Of a DNA stretch of 44,301 bases, positions 1-21,703 are shown piece by piece. The position numbers and the translations under genes were made by a program. The notes under the pieces are model-generated. The model searched no databases and was not told the origin of the DNA. It saw only the letters and a program-made list of their open reading frames with translations. Positions within the stretch are counted from its first letter, which is position 1; the number at the start of each line of letters is the position of its first letter. The DNA comes from Eremomyces bilateralis CBS 781.70 (taxonomy: Eukaryota), in the NCBI GenBank assembly GCA_010015585.1, contig ML975196.1, one strand, 5' to 3'.

Positions 1-838
1 CTTAATGGGGTATATTGTGCATCAGGAGTCGAGATGGATGGAAATATGTTGAGAGCCCTTAACATGGAATAGTGCAACTAGATTGCAATTGATCTCAGTC
101 CATAGGGCGTAGGGACTCTTTAAAAGTAGATAGTCTGAAAGGTAATAATCAAAAGTATAGTATCTATATTTTTTTTAAACGCCAATTAGTTGTCGAAAAG
201 CAGCAGAATGGCCTTCAATATGTTCGTTATCGTGATTTCGGTTGGGAAAGCTACACCAAATCCTGGGATTTTGGCTCAGACGCTGTTGGTAGTGGCGCCA
301 AGTCTTCGGATCTTCCTTGTCACGTGCCTTTCAGCGGCTGAGGTATCTGAGACTAATTTTCATTTCAGACAGAACTTTTCTTTTCTTCTCGAACGTTGAC
401 ACAGCCCGCCAAATCTCTTGGTGTTCAGTCCGGGACGCGCGGGTCGCGCTGGCTCGAACCTACCTGCCTAACGTACACATCACCTTCTTATGAACTTCGA
501 ATTAGCCAAGGCCCAGCCTATACGGGACCCAAGAAGAGATGGATTTCGTCGCGTCCCATAACTACTTCGTAGAATCCGCGCGTTCCAGCTTACAGATCTT
601 TGGGTCAAACTTTGCAGGGCACTCTTTCGTTGCCTGTTTCCCGAAACCATTGTATTGTATTTTCTCTTCCCTGACTTGTCCGCTCAAGGGCATAAGGATC
701 CTGATATTCTTTCCTTTAAGTCGCTTTGCATTCCTGCCGCTCCTTTGTTCCCACTTTCCTCAATCCATCGCCACAGGGTCGTCTAGGTGTTGACGTAGGT
801 ACACCAGGTTGTCAACACCACAACTCTCAGGCGCCATC

Positions 839-3800
839 ATGGGCGCAGATATCGTCGAGAAGGAGAAGGCCGCGGAAGAGGCGCGCGGCGATGAGTATCC
901 CATAGATGCCGCCGCAAAGGCTCCTACTCCAGATATTCCCGAGGAGATGACCCCATTTGCCGCTTACACGCGCGTTTTCACGTACGGCGGCGCGTTCGAG
1001 TATACTCTCCAGGCCATCGCCATCGTCGCCGCCCTTGGCTCAGGCGCCGGAATTGCCCTCCAAAACCTCATATTTGGTAGATTCGTCACTGTCATCACCG
1101 GCTTCGTCTCTGGGGTGTCAAGTCCTCCCGGTTTCCGGAGCGATGCCGCCGAACTCGCCCTCTACTTCGTATATTTGGGTATCGGCAGGCTGGTGCTCTC
1201 GTACATCTACAACAGCCTGTTCACCTATGTTGCCTACCGTCTCGTTCGCAATATGCGCTACGCCTACCTCAGGGCAGCCCTCAGCCAGGAAGTCGCCTAC
1301 TACGATTTCGGAACCGGTGGCTCCATTGCGACGCAGGCCACATCCAATGGTCGCCAGATCCAGAACGGTATCGCAGAGAAGCTCGGCCTGACCTTCCAGG
1401 GATTGGCTGCCTTCGTCACTGCGTTCATCATCGCTGTCGTTGTCCAGTGGAAGCTTGCACTCATCTGCCTCTGCATCGCCCCTGCCATCATCATCGTTAT
1501 GGGCGTCGTCGCCAGCATCGAGGCCGGTTTCGAAACCAAGATGATGGAGATACATGCCCAGGGTAATGCTTTTACAGAAGCGGTTCTCTCCGGCGTACGC
1601 ACTGTTCACGCCTTCGACATGCGCGCGAGGCTCGTCAATCGATTTAACACCTATTTGACCGAGACCCATAGGATCGGTGACAAGATCTCGCCCCTATTTG
1701 GTATCCTGTTTTCCGCCGAGTACACCATAATTTACTTGGGATTCGGTCTGGCCTTCTGGCAGGGGGTCCGAATGATGGCCACTGGCGAGATCGAAGACCC
1801 AGGCACAATCTTCACGTAGGCTAAACCCTTGCACGATGGCGCTTTTGGCTCCTTGTATTCGGTCCTAAACTAACCCTATTTATCAGTGTTCTTCTTTCTG
1901 TTGTTATTGGTTCCATCCAACTGACCATTTTGGCTCCTTATGCTATCGACTTCGGCCGCGCCGCTTCTGCTGCTGTCATGCTGTTTAGACTGATTGACCG
2001 CAAGTCGTCAATTGACCCCTTCGACGAGGATGGCGAGCAGCCGACCGAGACTGAAGGTGTCATCGAGATCGAGAATGTCACCTTTGCCTATCCCACTCGC
2101 CCCAGCGTCACTGTTCTGGATAACTTCTCCCTGAAGGTCCCGTCGGGCAAAGTCACTGCCCTGGTCGTAAGTTCTACCTTGGCTTTCGTACCCTGGTCCG
2201 TCGCTAACGACTCCTTCAGGGTCAATCCGGCTCCGGCAAGTCCACCATTGTTGGCCTCATCGAGCGCTGGTACAACCCGGAGTCAGGCACCATCAAGTTA
2301 GATGGTCGCCCCATCGACATGCTGAATTTGAATTGGCTGCGTAAGAACGTCCGCCTGGTTCAGCAGGAGCCCGTACTTTTTCAGGGCTCGGTCTTCGACA
2401 ATATCAAGCATGGCCTCATCGGAACCGAGTGGGAGAACGCGTCCCGCGAGAAGCAAATGGAACTGATTCAACACGCTGCCAAGATGGCCTTTGCCCACGA
2501 TTTCATTTCCGAACTCCCAAACGGCTACGGCACCCAGATCGGTCAGCGTGGAGGTCTGCTCTCCGGCGGTCAAAAGCAGCGTGTTGCCATCGCCCGCAGC
2601 ATCGTATCTCAACCGAAGGTTCTCTTGCTGGATGAGGCTACCAGTGCCCTAGACCCTCATGCCGAAGGTGTCGTCCAACAAGCCCTCGATAAGGCCGCGG
2701 AAGGTCGCACCACAATCGTCATTGCCCACAAGCTCGCTACTATCCGCAAGGCAGACAACATTGTTGTCATGCGCAATGGTCGCATCATCGAGCAGGGCAG
2801 CCACGAGTCTCTTATTGCCGACGGCGGTGCTTACGCTCGCTTGGTGGAGATCCAAAGCCTCGCTGTCGGCGAGGGCAAGTCCGAAACGGAGACTGAGGAC
2901 ACCCAGAACCCAGATCCTGCGGACCTGCACAAGCCCCTGACTCGGTACGCCTCGTCTGTCCAGGGCCGCATGGAAGCGAAAAAGGAGCGCGACAACTACG
3001 ACCATCACAAGCAATTTGGTATGCTGCATGTTGTGTTCCGCCTGATGAAGATGACTCCTGAATTGTTCTGGTGGTACGTACTAGTGCTTCTTGGATGCAT
3101 CGGTGCAAGTAAGTTTCAAAATTTCCCATACCCGATTCAAAATATCCGGTCGCTAACCAGCATGAAGGTGGTATTTTCCCTGGCCAAGCTATCCTCCTCG
3201 CCAACGTCATGGATGTCTTCACGCTCACCGGCGCCGCGATGGAGCGCGAGGGCAACTTCTACGCCAAAATGTTCATCGTCCTCGCGGCCGGCGCTCTTAT
3301 CAGCTACTTCGCCCTTGGCTGGTCCACCAACTGCGTTGCCCAGGCACTGAGCCAACTGATGCGCAGGCAGAGCTTCGATATGATCCTCCGCCAGGATCTC
3401 CAGTTCTTTGACCGCGAGGAGAACAGCACCGGAGCCCTTAGTAGTCGCATCGATTCCAATGCACAGTCCATTCTTGAGCTGATGGGTTTCAATGTCGGTC
3501 TCATTACGATCTCCGTCCTGAACGTTCTCACGTGCAGCATTCTTGCTATCGCCCACTCCTGGAACCTGGGCCTGGTCGTGGTTTTTGGTGGTCTCCCCCC
3601 TCTTTTCGGCGCTGCCTTTTTGAAGATTAAGCTGGACTCCAAGCTCGATCGTGACACGTCGAAGCGTTACTCCGCCAGCGCCTCGATCGCGTCGGAAGCC
3701 GTCAACGCCATTCGTACCGTTTCATCTCTCGCCATTGAAAAGTCTGTTCTGGAACAGTACACCAACGAACTCGACCATGCTCTGTCCGACTCTACTCCCC

Positions 3801-4876
3801 CGTTGTTCGCAGCCATGATCTGCTTTGGCTTCACACAGGCTATTGAGTACTGGTTCATGGCCCTTGGCTTCTGGTACGGCTGCCGCCTTCTCTCCTTCGA
3901 CAAGATTAGCATGTACAATTTCTTTGTTGCCTTCCTGGCTGTCTTCTTCTCTGGCCAGGCCACCGCCCAGCTCTTCCAGTTCTCAACCAGCATCACCAAG
4001 GGTGTCAACGGCGCCAACTACATCCTCTGGCTCAGCGGGCTAGAGTCCACCATCCGGCAAACCCCCGAGAACCTAGATAAGGGCCCTGGATCCGCCGGTC
4101 CCATTGCCCTGGACGATATCCGCTTTTCCTACCCTCTCCGACCCGACGCCCAGGTCCTTCGCGGCATCAACCTCACCGTCGAAAAGGGCCGGTTCGTCGC
4201 CTTCGTCGGCGCCTCCGGCTGTGGCAAGTCCACCATGATCGCCATGCTCGAGCGCTTCTACGACCCCACAACCGGCCGCATCGTCATCGACGGCTCGGAC
4301 CTCACCACCCTCAACCCCCGCCTCTACCGGCGCATCGTATCCTTCGTCCAGCAGGAGCCGATCCTCTTCAAAGGCTCCATCCGCGAGAATATCGCCCTCG
4401 GCCTCGACGACCCGACCATGGACGAACTCTCGTCCACCGATGCCGCGCTACGGGTTAGCGACGAGAAAATTGAAGCCGCTCTGCGCGGCGCCAACGCGTG
4501 GGGTTTCGTCTCTTCTCTTCCCGACGGGCTGAATACCCAGGCCGGTTCGGGCGGTACCCAGCTGTCCGGCGGTCAGCGCCAGCGCATCGCCATCGCGCGC
4601 TCGCTCATCCGCGACCCCAAGGTCCTGCTACTCGACGAAGCCACCAGCGCCCTCGATACGGAGAGCGAGAAGATCGTCCAGGGCGCCCTGAACGAAGCCG
4701 CCAAGGACGCCGACCGTATCACTTTCGCCGTCGCCCACCGTCTTAGCACCATCAAGGATGCGGACGTCATCTGCGTCTTCTACGGAGGCAAGATCGCCGA
4801 GATGGGCACTCACGAAGAGCTCATAGCCAACAGCGGCATGTATCGCAGGATGTGCGAGGCGCAAGCCCTGGATTGA
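839..4876 (+). CDS. Full-size ABCB/MDR (P-glycoprotein-like) ABC transporter; exons 839-1815, 1887-2166, 2220-3108, 3168-4876
   Basis: TMD-NBD-TMD-NBD order. Walker A GQSGSGKS (restored by splicing) and GASGCGKS; signature LSGGQKQR and LSGGQRQR; Walker B LLLDEATSALD twice. Three GT..AG introns with CTAAC branch sites join the ORFs in frame. Confidence 0.96.
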
Positions 4877-6489: not shown

Positions 6490-6677
6490 TAAGTTAACTA
6501 ACTTAGCCTACCTCTCCTCTATCGTCTTTCACTTGTTATGACGCTTTTCTATTCTTAATTATTAACTTGTTCACATTTTACCCAGGTCGAATTCAAATCT
6601 ATCTTCTGTCTCTACCATATTGGGCCATTCTAGGTTCCATTATCGTCCCATTTATTCTTCTCTTATCAGCCACTCCA

Positions 6678-8819
6678 ATGGACGAAGAAGCAGACCTTCC
6701 ATCTTATGATGATGCGCGGCAACCGGATATTTGGCCTTTTGTTCTTCCATATCTTCACACCTCAGACTTGCTCTCTTTGGGACAGGCTTCGCGACAGCTG
6801 AGCGGTCGAGTGCAAGGCTTTTTATGGTTCGCACCCAGACGATTCTGGCCCCGTGACTCCGAAGATGCCTTTGTTGTATTTGGAGAATTCCTCCAAATAT
6901 TGCGGTCAACGAACCATCACCCGGAGCGGAATCCGGGGTATTATACCCGTGTTCTCGATCTTTCGAACTTCAAAAGGGAAACATTTTCATTGCCTATGCC
7001 GAGGGACTGGTTATCCATCGTGCTCTCAAGCCTGCCCAACCTTCGCTGTTTGATTGTCGCTCATTCAGCCATATTTGACTCTGACTCGATCAATGGCCGA
7101 GTTCCCCATCATGGCAAGCTTCGACTTCTTGATGCATCCTATTGTCCTAACCTAACTTTCGATGCACTCTCGCGATTTTTGCAACGAGTTCCAGATTTGG
7201 CGTATCTTGACGTTTCTGGGAACCGGACTCCGGATGTTGATAAATCGTCCCTTTGGGCACAACTGCGGAGGCCATCACTTCGGATTCTTCAGCTTCGGCA
7301 AATGAGCATAACACTTCAGCTCGACCAGGCTCTGGATGGGAACGGATCTTTACGGTCCTATTATCACTGCCTGGACCTTCGAGACAGCGACGTAGGGGAC
7401 GCGTTCGTAGGAAGTTTGATTGGTATCCCTGGTAATCCAACTCTGGAACCGCCACCTCCGTATACCTATCATCTACCGACTCCGCTTCATATTGGTAGCC
7501 ATCTTGACTTTGGCGATGATACGGTGGATATCCCTCGCTTTATCGAGTCTAAAATTCGGGGTAGACTCGAAAATCCGATTTTCAAGCATGACCTGGTCAG
7601 CATGGTATCCATTTTTCGGAACATACGGTTGGAGAATACCTGGAGTTCAATAGCCGATTACCATGGTCTGACCCATATTGACGTTTCTGGCACTCGAGTC
7701 AGTCTAAAGCAATGCGCCGGTCTACTTGACGCGTTGCCTCTCCAGAGCTTTGGCTGTGGTCGACACTCATCAAGTAAAAGAGTACAAAATCAATATGGCA
7801 AACCGGATTTTGGCATCCGCGCTATCTTACAAGATATCAAAGATTCGAAGGGAATCGCATCCTCTCTGAAGCGTTGTTCGACTTTGCGAGACTTGCGGTG
7901 TCCCCATTATGTTGTCACCGGATTCTCGTCGGCATGGGATTCGGCGCCTGGCTTGGAGAGGGAAGACAGGTACACCGCTTCCGAGACCATCGAGAGGGAT
8001 CGTCTCTTTTTGACTCCTCCCCATACTTCACATCCCCCGGCACCCTCCACCACCGGCTTCGGACAACCCTCTCATATGTCTTCCGGTTCTCCATCCACCG
8101 TCCCGCACGAAGGCATCCAATGGCAACAAAACTTAACCCCAGACAATCAGCACCGGACCTTTTCTTTTGATGCCGCTTTGGTCTCCCTTGAGCGGCTGGT
8201 ATTGACCGACCTCCCTAGCCAAAGTACCCGTGGTCATGTAAGTTCTTGCTTGAAAGCATTCCTACAGACTGCGGGTGATTGGGTGCGGATCTCGAGACAG
8301 TACCAGGAAATCCAGGTCTCCGCCGAACCGTGTCATTATCAAACTTCTACTATCCATCATCCATCGGAGGCTATTCCGAACGCCCTTGCGAGTCGCCAAC
8401 CGAGAAGTTCCCTAGGTGATCGCCAAAAGCCGCGCATTGTTGACGTATCGTTGCAGTCACTTAAACTCGAGATGAGCAGCGATAGGGAAGAACATCGCCG
8501 TATGGACAGGCGAGCTCGAAACCACGACGAATCAATGGAGAACGATGAGAGCATAAACTCGTTCGACCAACTAATCAAAGACGATTTTTCATTCTTCTCT
8601 AACGAGCGGGTTAGCTCGGGCTTTCAAGAGTCGCCACTTCACACCGTATGGAAGTCTAAGGTTTTAATCGAAGAGCATCCGGATTTTGATGTTGCCAAGT
8701 CTCTCGCCGAGTTTAGGAGGAGATCGAAAGCCAGACCGGGGCACCAGGACGTGCAGAACACCGAGGTGGATGGTATATGGTGCGGTTCTTTAACAATAGA
8801 GAAGTATTCAGTTTCATGA
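6678..8819 (+). CDS. F-box-like / leucine-rich-repeat protein (~713 aa, apparently intronless)
   Basis: First ATG of the long ORF at 6678 (MDEEADLPSY). F-box-like segment DIWPFVLPYLHTSDLLSLGQASRQL, then LRR motifs LPNLRCLIV, LRLLDASYC, LAYLDVSGN, LTHIDVSGT. Confidence 0.8.
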   Translation: MDEEADLPSYDDARQPDIWPFVLPYLHTSDLLSLGQASRQLSGRVQGFLWFAPRRFWPRDSEDAFVVFGEFLQILRSTNHHPERNPGYYTRVLDLSNFKRETFSLPMPRDWLSIVLSSLPNLRCLIVAHSAIFDSDSINGRVPHHGKLRLLDASYCPNLTFDALSRFLQRVPDLAYLDVSGNRTPDVDKSSLWAQLRRPSLRILQLRQMSITLQLDQALDGNGSLRSYYHCLDLRDSDVGDAFVGSLIGIPGNPTLEPPPPYTYHLPTPLHIGSHLDFGDDTVDIPRFIESKIRGRLENPIFKHDLVSMVSIFRNIRLENTWSSIADYHGLTHIDVSGTRVSLKQCAGLLDALPLQSFGCGRHSSSKRVQNQYGKPDFGIRAILQDIKDSKGIASSLKRCSTLRDLRCPHYVVTGFSSAWDSAPGLEREDRYTASETIERDRLFLTPPHTSHPPAPSTTGFGQPSHMSSGSPSTVPHEGIQWQQNLTPDNQHRTFSFDAALVSLERLVLTDLPSQSTRGHVSSCLKAFLQTAGDWVRISRQYQEIQVSAEPCHYQTSTIHHPSEAIPNALASRQPRSSLGDRQKPRIVDVSLQSLKLEMSSDREEHRRMDRRARNHDESMENDESINSFDQLIKDDFSFFSNERVSSGFQESPLHTVWKSKVLIEEHPDFDVAKSLAEFRRRSKARPGHQDVQNTEVDGIWCGSLTIEKYSVS

Positions 8820-10186
8820 ATTGGTGGGCACGAGGAATTGATCTTGGCAATGCATGGAGAGTCCGATGTTATCCATGGCGTGAGTAGGATTAAAAAACCA
8901 TCCGGTTTCGGATAGAATTCGCTAAAAGGATTCCGAAACAAATCGTCGCGGAAATATCCTTATATTCGAATGAATGCAGGGAGTGGGGTAGACATACATC
9001 AGGGGCGCTCAACTTATTCAAACTTTTCAAGTCTCTAACTATAGGCTCGGTGTATCTATCGCTTGTTGCTGCATATGCAGAAGTCGACTTTATTCTCTCA
9101 CATTGGCCCCGCCCGTAGTTCCTGTCTCCAAATGAAACGACTTCTAGGCCTAGACTGCATGCAAAAGGGATTCATTAGCCGCAAGGTCAGTATCCAACAA
9201 GAACGAGTATTGAGCCAGGAGTTCTACTCGGAGCTGCAATACAGAACGAGCTCACTAGGCGAGGGAGAGCGTACTGGGGTCTATGTTCATCCCACGACTT
9301 GTTCTCCTTTGCAGGACCCCAACGCAGTTGAGGCGCAGCTTCAGTAAATTCAGTGCAGTATCCGTACGACTGGCTCTCAAGGACTGAGCCCAGCTGCCTC
9401 ATTGCCAGATATGTAGCAAATTACGAACTTCAGGTGTTCAAAGCGGTTGGGACTCCGCATACCTTGAGATCTGACGGAAGGGTGAGGACAAGCGGACCAG
9501 TTCTAGGGCCATGGTCAATCTCACCGGAATTCGTAGCACGCCAAGGGCTCCACAAATGGTACTTTCCCGTGTGCGCCCACAATGTGCTTGCTGTACTAAT
9601 AGGTCCCACATTCGGTTACTTTCCCGCGCGTTTTTGAATTGCTCGCCCTCTGCTTCAGCCCCATACTAGTGGATACTGTTTTCCGGCATTATGGCTATAG
9701 GATATGCCGTCTGGACCGAGAACCATTTGCTAAGGCGGGTGACATATCCTAACTTTACGGAACTCTCATATTGAGTTGAATTGTGCAACTTTATATTTTT
9801 GGGATCAACGATGTGATGAATATCGGGTACATCGCCTCCTATGCAGCCAAGTTCACTGGAATAAGACCCAGAATATCCACTGGCAAGGCCCCAACCCCCA
9901 TTTTGACTGAATTTAAAAGGCCATTGCGGACATCAGCATCTGGGGCCTCGCACTAGGAACAAAAGCTTTGACAGACTAACTCTAAGAAGTTGGGTGCCAT
10001 ATTGACCAGGCAAATTACCACAACATCTCTCTAGCTATTGGAGGTGTTTGGACGATCATCAAGGGAGTCATAAAGCTAGTAATGTATATTACGGATTTAG
10101 CATACCGGACGAATCTAATTGGATATGTGAGATCAACAACGGACAATTCAGAAGTACAACTCCGGACAAGCAATGAATTCAAACTC

Positions 10187-12286
10187 TCAGGTCTCAATCT
10201 TCTTCGTTTCCAGACCTTCCAGGTTATCAGCCGCTCGCCATTCTTGCAGAATCTTGATGAATGCTGGAGCACCGCCACCATAGGACCCATTTCGGGCAGC
10301 AAATTCGGACGGCTTCCCTTCGTTATTGTAATAACCAGGCGTGCACTCTTTAAGGAAATCTGCCCGCAAGTGGGTCGCATCGAGAATCTTCTGAACCCAG
10401 TCTTGCTCAGCCTTTTCTGATGGCTCAATTGCTCGAATATTGCGAGCTCGACAGGCGGCGATCACATACGCAATATGCCTTGCTTGCTCAGCAGTAACAT
10501 GCATGAAGTTGGGAGTGAGCGCAGCTTGAACGATAGAAACCCAAAAGCAGTTCGGAAAGCCACGGCTTGCCTACAAGGGATCGTCAGTCAAATAAGTGGG
10601 AAGGACATCATTTACTTACCCAGCCGTGGAGGGTGCTGGCACCCTTCTTCCACTTCTCGGTGATAGATATATTGTCCCGACCGTAAATTTCCATGCCCGA
10701 ACGATGGCTCCAATCTGTTGATAGCTCAAAACCGGTGGCGATGACAATGCAGTCGAGTTCGATTTCTTCGCCATTAGCAATGATTCCCTTCTCCGTGAAT
10801 GCCTGGATTCCGTCACCATGCGTATCAACCAGGTGCACGTTTGGACGATTGAACGTCTGAAGGTACTCGTCGTGGAAGCAAGGCCTGTCATACAGTTAGC
10901 AATTTGAATGAGTTGGGGCAGACATCGTTGCTTTCCTCTTGCAAAATTGATTGTAATACGGCTTCAAACTCTCTGCCGTTACTGGATCCTTGACGATGGC
11001 GTCACATCTAGCGCGAACCTGATTCATCTTTTCAAAATCGGCCATTTGGCGATCAATGGCCATCTGAGCTGGATCGATCGGCTCCGAGGTCTTTCTCGGA
11101 ACCAGCAATCTCGCGATGATATCGGTCCATCCGTCGCCGACGAGGTCCTCTTCTTGCATGATTCCATTGACCATCATGTCGAAATTCTCCATTCGGTGGC
11201 TTTGCCACCCTTTCTTGAGTGTCTTGGCCCATGCAGAATCAGTAGGTTTATTTCCTCGAACGTCGATTGACGAGGGAGTTCGCTGAAAGACATAGAGGTC
11301 TTTGGCGGCCTCGCCCAAGTGCGGGACGATCTGTACAGCAGTAGCACCAGTACCAATGATCCCTACCCGCTTATCCGAAAGCTTGCTCAGGCCCCCATCT
11401 GAGTCACCTCCAGTGTAGTTATAGTCCCATCTGGCAGAATGGAAGCTATGTCCTTTGAAAGACTCAATTCCGGGGGCTCCAGGGAACTTTGGACGGTGCA
11501 AGGGGCCTGCTGCGGGGATGACAAATCGAGATCGGATGGAGTCTCCGCGACTCGTTTTGGTTGTCCAGGTGGTATTTGTATCATCCCAATGCATGGTGCT
11601 GACCTCGGTCTGGAAAAGTGTTCGTGGATAGAGGCCGAATTTCTCTCCAATAATCCGGGAGTGTCGAAGAAGTTCCTTCGCACGAGCGTACTTTTCAGTG
11701 GGCATATAACCGACCTCCTCCAGAATGGGCATGTAAATGTACGATTCAACATCGCACTGAGCACCGGGATATCTATTCCAATACCCTGTTTAAAGGTCAG
11801 AATGGTCGTCGACTAATGGGAGGTGTGGGGGGAGGGATACAAGTTCCACCGAAGTCACCAGCCTTTTCGATCAACCGAATATTTTCCACACCAGCCTCGA
11901 GCAGACGAACAGCAATAAGTTGGGCGCCATAACCGCCTCCAATGACCACGACCTCGACTTCTTCGTCGATAGGGTCACGCTGAAATCCAGGTTTAACCCA
12001 TGGGTCCTTCGGGGGAAGTTAGAAGTCAGTTAATTCAGTACCTAGAGAAAGCAAGACTTACCTCAAGGTAATGCAGAAGTTTACCATCAACCATCTGATA
12101 TTGTTCCACTCCTTTGCCATGCTTCAGACGCCTTTCTCTTTCTTCATCGTACTTCTCCTTGAGCTTGACGGGATCGAATGGAAGAGCATTCTCTTGAAGT
12201 ATCTCCGCAACCTTCTCCACCACGTTGACGTTCTTCTCCAGGGGATCGAGGGTGACCGGAACGCCTCGTTCAATATCTGTTGCCAT
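10187..12286 (-). CDS. Type I Baeyer-Villiger monooxygenase (cyclohexanone/phenylacetone monooxygenase family); introns 12007-12061, 11786-11840, 10885-10935 (non-canonical GA donor), 10571-10619
   Basis: Rossmann motifs VIGGGYG and [29 protein letters not shown] fingerprint [42 protein letters not shown]. Confidence 0.93.
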
Positions 12287-12619
12287 AATTCTTGTAGCGG
12301 TTAGCAATACGTTTGAATCTGGGGGCTTTCATCGACCATCCAACGTACATCCTGGATATTTGTCCCACTCAACTGAAAAAGGGGCACTTGCACTGACTTG
12401 ATTTAGCAATCTTGTAGTATTGATTTGCCACAATCTTGATCCTATACGTCAAAAAGGTGGACCGATACCGCTTTGATATAAACAAAATTGTTCCCTGTTA
12501 TCGCATCACCCCTCATTTCTAGTCCCAAGGTTAGCAGCTTCTAGTTCCCAAGGCTCTGCTACCCCACACCCCGCATCTTCCAGGGGCTGGAACTTTGGTT
12601 ACGGATACTGTTACCCGCC

Positions 12620-14494: not shown

Positions 14495-15970
14495 TCAACT
14501 CGCCAACGCCGTCACGATCCTCGCAAGCACTGGATTTTGTGCAATGAACAACGCTGCTAACCACTTCCCCTCCGCAGACCTATCCCCACCCACTTTCACC
14601 CAAACGGTAGCAAGAGCCCAGTGTGCAATTGGCGAAGGTTCATATCCCGCCAGAGATACCTGGTCCAAGTGATACGGAATACTGCGACATATATCTAAGA
14701 CTGCTAGGCGCTGTGCGGTAATGTAGCGGTTTTCGGTGTCTTCGCGGGTAGGCTTTGAAGGTAGGTAGTCGTGTAATGTATGGTGTGACTTTAAGTAGAA
14801 ACTGGGGTTTTTGAAGTCGAGAGTTAGGAGGAGTTGGAGGATGTAGATTAGTATGATGTTGTAGAACATGAACATGATTGCGATAGATTCGTCGCGGAAA
14901 GTAAAAATGGTGGTGAAAGGCATGAGGTCATCGGGGCGAGGTCCTTCTATTGGCGTCGCGGAGTAGGAATTCCTTTCGTCGCTATCCCATCGCTGTCTCC
15001 AGGCACAGAGCTGCATCGATAGATTCTGTACTTTCTGTTTCAGCGCAGTATGTTGGTCGGGAGGCTTGTCAATATGTAGTCGCCACTTCGCCAGTAATTT
15101 ATCGCGTATAGCGAACAGGACTGTGCAGTCTGCCAGGATATCGTATAATTCTTGTTGCTCTCTTTCTTCGTCTGAGCATGATGACCTTAAGACTCTTTTC
15201 CAATCCGGCCGCGCGAGAATAGACGGCTCTCTTACCCACAGCGCAGAGAAGATAGCCAGATGTCGCACGTGCAGATAGAGCGCTGACAAGTGGGCCGGGA
15301 TCGGCGAGCTAATGTCCTGCAGTTGAAGCAGCCTTTCTACTGCTCTCATGTGTTTGAAATTGATTCCCATCCCCGTAGGCACGAGGGCTTCTAGTATAGC
15401 CAGAGTAAGAACGGAAAGGATGAGTTCATTGTGTTTATAGCAGATCGGATCGGATAGTGAATGGTTTATCTGCTTCAATGCCACGCCGTACACGGCGTAC
15501 CCGCCCTTGGTGATGGAGTTTCGTCGGTGTTCGGTGCCAAAAAAAATCATGGCGAAGCTCATGATAGCTTGGTGGGAGACTCGTTTGGTGGATACTGTCG
15601 CATTGGCTAGTGAAACACCAATGGACGCCATATTCCTGGTAGCCACCTCAATGGGGTCGCCACGAGTCGTGTACTTTAACATAAAACATATATATCTCTC
15701 GAACTCGTTGCCATTGAGTGGGGCTGATGGGGGTGTCTGGTGTAGACTGCGTCTAGACTTGACAATGGTTCCTTTGATAAAACAGACCTCCTTCGGCCCA
15801 TCGCACTCGAAGCCACCTTTTTCACATCGTACGCAGATAGGACGACGTTCATCTTCGAGAGGGTCAATTTACTATTATCATTTGGCGATCTCCAGGTAGT
15901 GCTTACCGCATTTGACTCGTCTTTGGCGGCAAGTGGAGCAGCCTTTTGATCTCCCGGCCACGTTCACCAT
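14495..15970 (-). CDS. Zn(II)2Cys6 fungal transcription factor; exons 15970-15907 and 15852-14495
   Basis: MVNVAGRSKGCSTCRQRRVKC|DERRPICVRCEKGGFECDGP (six-Cys cluster across a GTAAGC..AAG intron), continuing in frame into the 395-aa ORF. Confidence 0.93.
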
Positions 15971-19883: not shown

Positions 19884-20882
19884 TCACGCCGAGTCCATTG
19901 CAGCTAACATCGCTGGAACTTCCTCCTCCTTCCAAGTAGTCCACACATCCTTCTCCTTGGGTTCCCAACCCAATTCCCGTAACCTGATCGTACGAGTTCT
20001 CGCATTACAACCAAGAACAGGAGTCATAGGGCCCAAAATATCCGCGTAGTCGGCTTCAGTAAATGTCTGTACCTTAGGACCCTTGATCTTGCCAGCCTCG
20101 AACAGAACTTGGCTAAGCTTTTCTGCAACCTCACGCATTGAGACCTCGGACCCGTTTTCGGCGAAAAAGTATGGATTCTCCAGGATGGCTGCCGGTGCGG
20201 ACTTCTCAACATATGCCAACATCGTCATATAGGCGCGCGCAAGGTCCTTGACGTGAATGACGCTCCATATATTTCGACCTTCACCCACATGGCCTGCAAA
20301 CCCATGCTTCAACGTAAAGCGCACCAGAATCGGCAGCACAAAAGAATTGCGCTTATGGACCCGGTCCACCCCATAGACAAGTGCAGGAAGAATGATGGCG
20401 ATCTTTGCCTTCTCCCCAAACTCATGCGCTGCTTGGACGATTGGGATGTCCACGTGGCGGTGGATGGAAGCGGGCGGCAAGGCGTCGATGTCTCCTGGAA
20501 CATCGTCGCCGTAGGCTTTACCGTCCTTGTGCATTCCCATTGCACCATCATCGAGCACGCCTGATCCGCTCGTATGAATATAAATACTCGGCAGGCCCGC
20601 ATGAACACGCTGGCGCACGCCTGACAGTATGGCTTCCACGCTTGGCAAGTCGTCGGATGATGCAGTGTTTATGGTTATTTCATGCAGAGCGGCTTGCTTC
20701 GTGAGTAGCTCGAGATCGCTTAAAGTGCCGAGGACGGTTTTTGCCCCGGCCTCCTCGAATATTGATGCTTGCTCTTGCCGCCGTACAAAGACTGTGACTG
20801 GATATTTCGCTGCAAGAAGCTGATCGAAGACGTTCTGTCCGACATATCCAGCGCCGACGAGAAAGATGCTTTGAGGTGCCAT
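19884..20882 (-). CDS. NAD(P)-binding Rossmann-fold protein (atypical SDR / NAD-dependent epimerase / NmrA-like), 332 aa
   Basis: ATG at 20882: MAPQSIFLVGAGYVGQ; YIHTSGSG; WSVIHVKDLARAY; LRELGWEPK; intact single exon. Confidence 0.9.
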   Translation of the reverse strand: MAPQSIFLVGAGYVGQNVFDQLLAAKYPVTVFVRRQEQASIFEEAGAKTVLGTLSDLELLTKQAALHEITINTASSDDLPSVEAILSGVRQRVHAGLPSIYIHTSGSGVLDDGAMGMHKDGKAYGDDVPGDIDALPPASIHRHVDIPIVQAAHEFGEKAKIAIILPALVYGVDRVHKRNSFVLPILVRFTLKHGFAGHVGEGRNIWSVIHVKDLARAYMTMLAYVEKSAPAAILENPYFFAENGSEVSMREVAEKLSQVLFEAGKIKGPKVQTFTEADYADILGPMTPVLGCNARTRTIRLRELGWEPKEKDVWTTWKEEEVPAMLAAMDSA

Positions 20883-21703
20883 TGTAAAGGATTGTAGTTG
20901 ATTGTTTTGCTGAGTTGGTGGAATGTTGACAAGATGAAGTTTCTGAAGCACTTATAAGTACTGTTAAATAGTACTTTTAAATATGAGCCCCTGCCTGAGA
21001 TGATTGATGGATGACCAAGAAATCTGAGGTCTCTCCACAATGCATGCAGGGGCGGTCCGAACTATACTATAGCTCGCGCATTGAGCCGCAAGAGGAATAA
21101 CGCCAAACATTTATATCAACTATTTATTCGGCCACGAGAGAAGATTACAAACTTACTCTTTGCTTATTAATTGCCCAGGCTGATAAATGGCTACGAGTAA
21201 AATCTAAGTCGCAGCTTTTAATCAATAGTATGTGAATAGTAGTTAGTAATAGGTTACGATTGGGCTAAAGATTGGAAATCGGCCTCGCGGGTGTCTATTA
21301 CTCAGCGTTTCCGGGTCGAAGGAGATTGCGTGCTTGTGAATGAGATCAAATGTAGGAAGATTGACCCCTGCTTCTTGCGATTGCCTCTCCCGCTTCTGGG
21401 CAATATGATCGCACGTACCAACAAACGCCTCGCGACGCCAAGCATTAGATGTCTGTCCCTCACAGTAACGACGGCCATGACGTGGTATGGCATGACAAGA
21501 ATTAATATAAGCGAGTTATTTACTACTGGAAGTAAGAGTACAGAGGACTATAAGTACGACTATATCCATCAACTCAGCCATGTATAGCATTCAGAAGACT
21601 TCATACTCGACAACCCTTATACCTAACTTCTTCGCCCTTTAAGGCACGAGCAAATACGAAACACTCCCAAATAATTTATTATTAGTCTACCTAATATCAA
21701 ACA

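Follow-up and report, generated by a model that had tools for sequence, protein, structure and literature searches.

The window, that is, the whole stretch of 44,301 nucleotides of contig ML975196.1 (GCA_010015585.1) from Eremomyces bilateralis CBS 781.70 that was analyzed, carries on its minus strand a gene predicted to encode a Baeyer–Villiger monooxygenase (BVMO). This gene and the features in its neighborhood are listed in Table 1. Among the six long frames scanned in positions 1–24000 of the window, no polyketide or peptide synthetase was found.

Table 1. Features of the BVMO gene, its fourth intron, and the neighboring genes (window positions; a slash marks an exon–intron border)
Feature	Position	Strand	Description and basis
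Full-size ABC transporter	794–4876	+	Split over several frames; Pfam
770-aa open frame	6507–8819	+	No match in the Pfam scan
Transcribed region of the Baeyer–Villiger monooxygenase gene	10105–12467	−	Single contig of run X3, 2095 exon letters, six pieces
Coding region	10187–12286	−	ATG 12286–12284 to TGA 10189–10187; 1890 nt = 629 aa, identical to P0002
Coding exons	12062–12286, 11841–12006, 10936–11785, 10620–10884, 10187–10570	−	Five, summing to 1890 nt
Intron 1	12291–12348	−	58 nt, GT-AG, acceptor AAG, in the 5′ untranslated region; X3 joint
Intron 2	12007–12061	−	55 nt, GT-AG (GTAAGT, CTAAC)
Intron 3	11786–11840	−	55 nt, GT-AG, weak donor GTATCC
Intron 4	10885–10935	−	51 nt, phase 2, GA..AG termini; RNA contig joint and sequence
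Intron 4 donor GAAAGC after exon-end AG	10930–10935	−	Noncanonical A at 10934 (+2)
GT of the alternative 39-nt intron (GTCTGC)	10922–10923	−	Only in-frame GT alternative
Branch-site motif CTAAC	10895–10899	−	Presumed branch A 10896, 11 nt before the last intron base
Acceptor AG (ACAG/G)	10885–10886	−	Sequence, joined-exon check
Intron 5	10571–10619	−	49 nt, GT-AG (GTAAGT, CTGAC)
Fungal-specific transcription factor domain protein	14495–15868	−	Pfam
NAD-dependent epimerase/dehydratase-family protein	19884–20951	−	Pfam

The transcript starts near 12467, and only four bases separate its first intron, in the 5′ untranslated region, from the ATG at 12286. The donor of intron 3, GTATCC, agrees with the consensus at four of nine positions and is slightly like those of the minor spliceosome; it is spliced nonetheless. 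A protein search with a 297-aa exon as the query returned a public protein of 629 aa (P0002) with 100% identity, which is named FAD/NAD(P)-binding domain-containing protein [Eremomyces bilateralis CBS 781.70] at NCBI. This protein is identical to the spliced product of the gene, and the deposited annotation therefore already removes exactly the 51 bases of intron 4.

The open frames flanking intron 4 gave Pfam matches to FMO-like and Pyr_redox_2/3, which are flavin-monooxygenase and Rossmann-type domains. Type I BVMOs carry the fingerprint FxGxxxHxxxW[P/D] between two Rossmann motifs of the form GxGxx[G/A], and also the motif [A/G]GxWxxxx[F/Y]P[G/M]xxxD. In the product, the fingerprint is present at residue 240, between GGGYGA at 98 and GTGATA at 275, and the further motif is at 128. 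Judged from these motifs, the product is a predicted type I BVMO. The best solved relative is 5mq6_A (E 1.7e-137, product residues 41–623), which we take to be the polycyclic ketone monooxygenase of Thermothelomyces thermophila. This fungal type I BVMO, deposited under the PDB title “pyridine nucleotide-disulfide oxidoreductase-like protein,” shares a 20-letter stretch with the product. Phenylacetone monooxygenase (1w4x, 8xg7) matched the product at E 1e-76, and a residue count from the printed alignment places Lys413-Arg414 of the product opposite Lys336-Arg337 of that enzyme. Arg337 of phenylacetone monooxygenase is termed “catalytically crucial” in a passage of PMC2956058, and a figure legend of PMC4966971 speaks of the “catalytically important Arg (R337)” for another fungal BVMO. 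Arg414, the codon of which is split by intron 4, is thus placed opposite the catalytic arginine, as the original prediction had it. In the alignment of all 120 homologues among the matches listed, K-R-P stands in adjacent columns with no insertion in 120 of 120.

At the site of intron 4, the minus strand of the window reads TTT TGC AAG AG/GAAAGCAACGATGTCTGCCCCAACTCATTCAAATTGCTAACTGTATGACAG/G CCT TGC TTC, which spelled out is TTT TGC AAG AG/GAAAGC AACGATGTCTGCCCCAACTCATTCAAATT GCTAAC TGTATGACAG/G CCT TGC TTC. The Arg414 codon is divided into AG at 10937–10936 and G at 10884; the donor letters are G at 10935 and A at 10934, and the acceptor AG is at 10886–10885. Retention of the intron would end the frame at a TAA (10898–10896) 12 residues past Arg414, and this stop codon sits inside the CTAAC branch-site motif. 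When the 51 nt are removed, AG and G form an Arg codon, and the sequence CKRPCF is restored. The original prediction had described this sequence with a 51-nt intron, a GAAAGC donor one base away from GTAAGC, and a stop at TAA 10896 in the absence of splicing, and all of this matches the letters of the window.

Other ways of restoring the frame were searched for around the donor. The only in-frame GT alternative is the one named in advance, the 39-nt intron with the donor GTCTGC (GT at 10923), which would add four residues right behind Arg414. As the main form it was rejected, because it is not present in the RNA contig described below and the four inserted residues are matched by 0 of the 120 homologues. 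A GC donor at 10942 would give a 58-nt intron that is out of frame, and none of the remaining GT or GC sites near the intron 4 donor restores the frame. Because AGG is present at both edges, four equivalent placements of intron 4 yield the same mRNA (AA..GG, GA..AG, GG..CA, and AG..AC), and GT-AG is among none of them. The sole placement that keeps both a G at the first position and an AG acceptor is GA..AG, and the true boundary is probably this one rather than one of the three others.

Five sequencing runs were found by the run search (X1–X5), of which X1–X4 were compared as Logan contigs with positions 9900–12600 of the window. X1 and X2 are DNA from one sample. Each gave one contig that was identical to the window over the 2701 bases, with no joints, at a mean word depth of 177 (X1) and 263 (X2); both contigs read A at 10934, and no other letter was listed. 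As these runs are possibly the source reads of the assembly itself, the result excludes an assembly slip rather than adding independent DNA. X4, which has another organism code, contained next to none of the window's words, and no contig of this run was placed on 9900–12600; X5 likewise contained next to none of the words in the run search.

X3 contained 0.81 of the words and is tagged “RNA?”, which is a guess; we judge it to be RNA from the five removed introns and an adapter-like loose end at 12467. It gave a single contig of 2121 letters on the minus strand at a depth of 82, aligned in six pieces from 12467 to 10105. Over the 2095 exon letters, untranslated regions included, there were 0 differing letters and 0 gaps relative to the window. 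The five joints skip 58, 55, 55, 51, and 49 bases, and four of them are GT..AG on the coding strand. The remaining one, joint 4, runs from 10935 to 10883 and leaves out 51 bases (“both 3”). When the pieces were joined by a script, the resulting 2095 nt had a longest frame of 629 aa that was identical to P0002, and the 51 nt are therefore removed from the RNA alongside four ordinary introns. Intron 4 is not a chance look-alike, because the RNA contig skips exactly 51 bases there. The fully spliced form was the only transcript form assembled, and no form retaining the intron was among the contigs, in which rare variants are dropped and only one mean depth is given per contig, so that minor isoforms are hidden. 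A junction check across 10885–10935 had been suggested together with the prediction, and the exact splicing of the RNA contig, which the public gene model shares, supports the first of the explanations then offered, a real noncanonical splice site.

The build of intron 4 was compared with those of the four GT-AG introns of the same gene. The donor sites were scored against the consensus CAG/GTAAGT. The donor of intron 4 (GAG/GAAAGC) agrees with it at six of nine positions (−2, −1, +1, +3, +4, and +5), as against four to eight of nine in the GT-AG introns. Its length is 51 nt versus 49–58 nt, its branch motif is CTAAC versus CTAAC or CTGAC, and the distance from the branch A to the last intron base is 11 nt versus 10–13 nt. 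Except for the +2 position, intron 4 is an average intron of its gene. There was no indication of a repeat or mobile element, in that the first 26 nt of intron 4 occur only once in the window when up to three mismatches are allowed, and an Rfam scan of the window gave 0 matches.

We propose that 10885–10935 is, very probably, a genuine short U2-type spliceosomal intron with GA-AG termini, which is spliced out of the transcript of an intact, expressed BVMO gene. The excision would be performed by the spliceosome and would bring AG and G together to form the catalytic Arg414 codon. The A at +2 is probably tolerated in this U2-type excision because everything else conforms to the consensus: the AG at the exon end, the G at +1, AAG at +3 to +5, the CTAAC motif, the AG acceptor, and the short length. 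As to its origin, the most economical route may be that a GTAAGC donor underwent a T-to-A change.

The donor letter of the RNA's own source is not readable from a spliced contig, and this leaves room for a strain difference, in which the source of the RNA had GT and the T-to-A change in the sequenced DNA blocks splicing and truncates the protein after Arg414, making it a null allele. The sample and study codes of X3 do differ from those of X1 and X2, and a GT-to-GA change at +2 is classically held to be damaging; the title of Brackenridge et al. (2003, EMBO J 22:1620) reportedly contains the word “dead-end.” This account is nevertheless quite improbable, as X3 has the organism label of X1, its contig agrees with the window in every exon letter and without gaps, the remaining gene is intact, and the gene model deposited for this DNA splices the intron out. 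The loss-of-function allele considered in the original prediction is not borne out either, since the only assembled transcript is fully spliced and codes for an intact 629-aa enzyme; the accompanying observation that the rest of the gene is intact does hold, the full frame after splicing being that of P0002. A sequencing or assembly error, also considered at that time, would mean that position 10934 is in truth a T and that intron 4 is an ordinary GT-AG one. GAAAGC is indeed one base off GTAAGC, and the assembly may have been made from these same two DNA runs, but the two were assembled independently by Logan and are identical over the 2701 bases, with A at 10934 at both depths, which makes such an error extremely unlikely.

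The AGG at both edges also raises the question of whether the 51-nt skip arose by template switching across the 3-nt repeat, or as an assembly artefact, while the mRNA itself retains the intron or is spliced in the 39-nt form. The word length of the Logan assembly is 31 letters, and a 3-nt repeat is far below it. Moreover, the skipped form is the only one assembled and lies in one unbroken contig with four canonical splices, the skip coincides precisely with a consensus-like donor, a CTAAC branch site, and an AG, and it brings back a motif found without exception in all 120 of the listed homologues, none of which has the four residues that the 39-nt form would insert. We therefore regard an artefact as very unlikely, even though a passage of PMC7072748 mentions that apparent GA-AG junctions may result from template switching. 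Because the termini are noncanonical, excision by another route was weighed as well, namely of the Ire1/HAC1 type, of the U12 type, or as a nested twin intron (stwintron) that re-creates a GT donor. In the first of these, both cut sites lie in the loops of paired stem-loops, but no stable local fold was found at intron 4 (minimum free energy −12.8 kcal/mol, z 0.98, with 171 of 200 shuffles folding at least as well). U12-type introns have the donor /ATATCC or /GTATCC and a branch site like TCCTTAAC, and neither the donor GAAAGC nor the branch site GCTAAC of intron 4 fits. In a twin intron, the outer donor is interrupted between G1 and T2 by an inner intron that has a donor, a branch site, and an acceptor of its own. 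A nested twin intron is excluded by the AA after the first G and the single CTRAY motif, which leave no room for a second intron within the 51 nt. Taken as a group, these other routes have an almost negligible probability. RNA editing of the donor was rejected, as A-to-I editing yields a G-like letter and not U, so that no GU would be formed.

If intron 4 is a genuine U2-type GA-AG intron, it may be asked whether its donor is a working feature rather than a tolerated accident. We consider this unlikely, but it could take two forms. With a relaxed recognition of the +2 position, AG/GAA donors would recur genome-wide in this fungus or its order, paralleling in a fungus what is seen in a copepod and in Oikopleura. 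If the donor instead acts as a throttle on expression, some transcripts would keep the intron, hit the TAA in the branch site, and be degraded, and the efficiency of splicing would set the level of the enzyme.

The published counts show that the GA-AG class is rare but known in fungi, in agreement with the rarity that had been claimed for it. Table 1 of PMC11590231 gives 35 GA-AG introns (0.038%) for Ganoderma lingzhi. For Fusarium graminearum, PMC3577648 counts GA-AG among the 0.31% “other” noncanonical sites of 2604 inspected introns, and its supplementary file 4 has one GA-AG intron of 52 nt, in FGSG_10550. In human, 14 GA donors among 222,263 introns are cited in PMC5714493. As tabulated, the Fusarium and Ganoderma introns are like intron 4 in that they are short, start with GA, end with AG, and are supported by transcripts, and the 52 nt of the FGSG_10550 intron nearly equal the 51 nt found here. 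This comparison covers termini, length, and transcript support; the cases belong to other genes and species, and in intron 4 it is a catalytic residue whose codon is split.

Human FGFR1–3 have GA 5′ splice sites in a U2-type intron that are reportedly used efficiently (Brackenridge et al. 2003). Passages of PMC7072748 and PMC5714493 describe this FGFR donor as alternatively spliced and as reliant on a nearby consensus site located six nucleotides upstream. Intron 4 differs in this respect, because there is no GT within the 20 bases upstream of its donor. Parallels to the flanks of intron 4 are found in other animals. In the sections of PMC5714493 that concern the copepod Eurytemora affinis, the GA donors are constitutive; an AG at the exon end is obligate, and +3 is nearly always an A. 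The GA donors of Eurytemora affinis and Oikopleura dioica both have the form AG/GAA, as in intron 4, and are described in parts of PMC5714493 and PMC7072748 as constitutive and required for the full-length protein. In these passages, however, GA donors amount to ~10–12% of introns (3.2% of supported splice sites in one species) and imply an altered recognition of the donor, whereas a single case is known here.

With the fourth intron of the BVMO gene, a very rare class gains one fungal member backed by a transcript, and this member obeys the flanking rule of the animal cases, an AG at the exon end and an A at +3. The deposited gene model is shown by the transcript to be correct. Gene finders that demand GT or GC donors would truncate the enzyme at residue 426 or add four residues beside the catalytic Arg. 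No new question is opened by this case, as introns of this class, the outline of their mechanism, and the present gene model had all been public before.

Orthologous loci were sought by scanning metagenome contigs with P0002, which returned 80 loci, followed by tblastn. More than one matching piece was found in 13 of the 80, and a split gene was seen in only three of these 13 (L020, L022, and L027), which are near-identical copies with 69% identity to the query and are the only eukaryotic genomic relative found among the 80 metagenome loci. No intron is present at the CKR/P site in these copies, and their Arg codon there is CGT. Their single intron (2855–2904) is a GT-AG intron with the donor GTGAGT at the position of intron 3, in the same Trp codon (TG/G). 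The other 10 multi-piece loci, read from their overlapping query ranges, appear to be tandem or second copies. A close relative of Eremomyces was not found among the matches listed, in which the nearest named protein reaches 74% identity over the 297-aa exon query.

Several minor observations were made on the distribution of the monooxygenase. Fungal orthologues from other orders have 67–74% identity to the 297-aa exon, and bacterial homologues are almost as near, with 64–68% in Phenylobacterium, Caulobacterales, and other Alphaproteobacteria (e.g., P0003, P0059, P0067, and P0085–P0086). This near equality of the bacterial and fungal identities may point to an ancient transfer between the two groups. 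Six of the metagenome loci (L005, L010, L011, L035, L039, and L045) are intron-less and presumably bacterial, and each has two full-length monooxygenase copies adjoining one another. The top-scoring match in the protein search was a protein of 1263 aa from the chytrid Synchytrium microbalum (P0001), ~2 times the usual length, which may reflect a tandem fusion or the merging of gene models.
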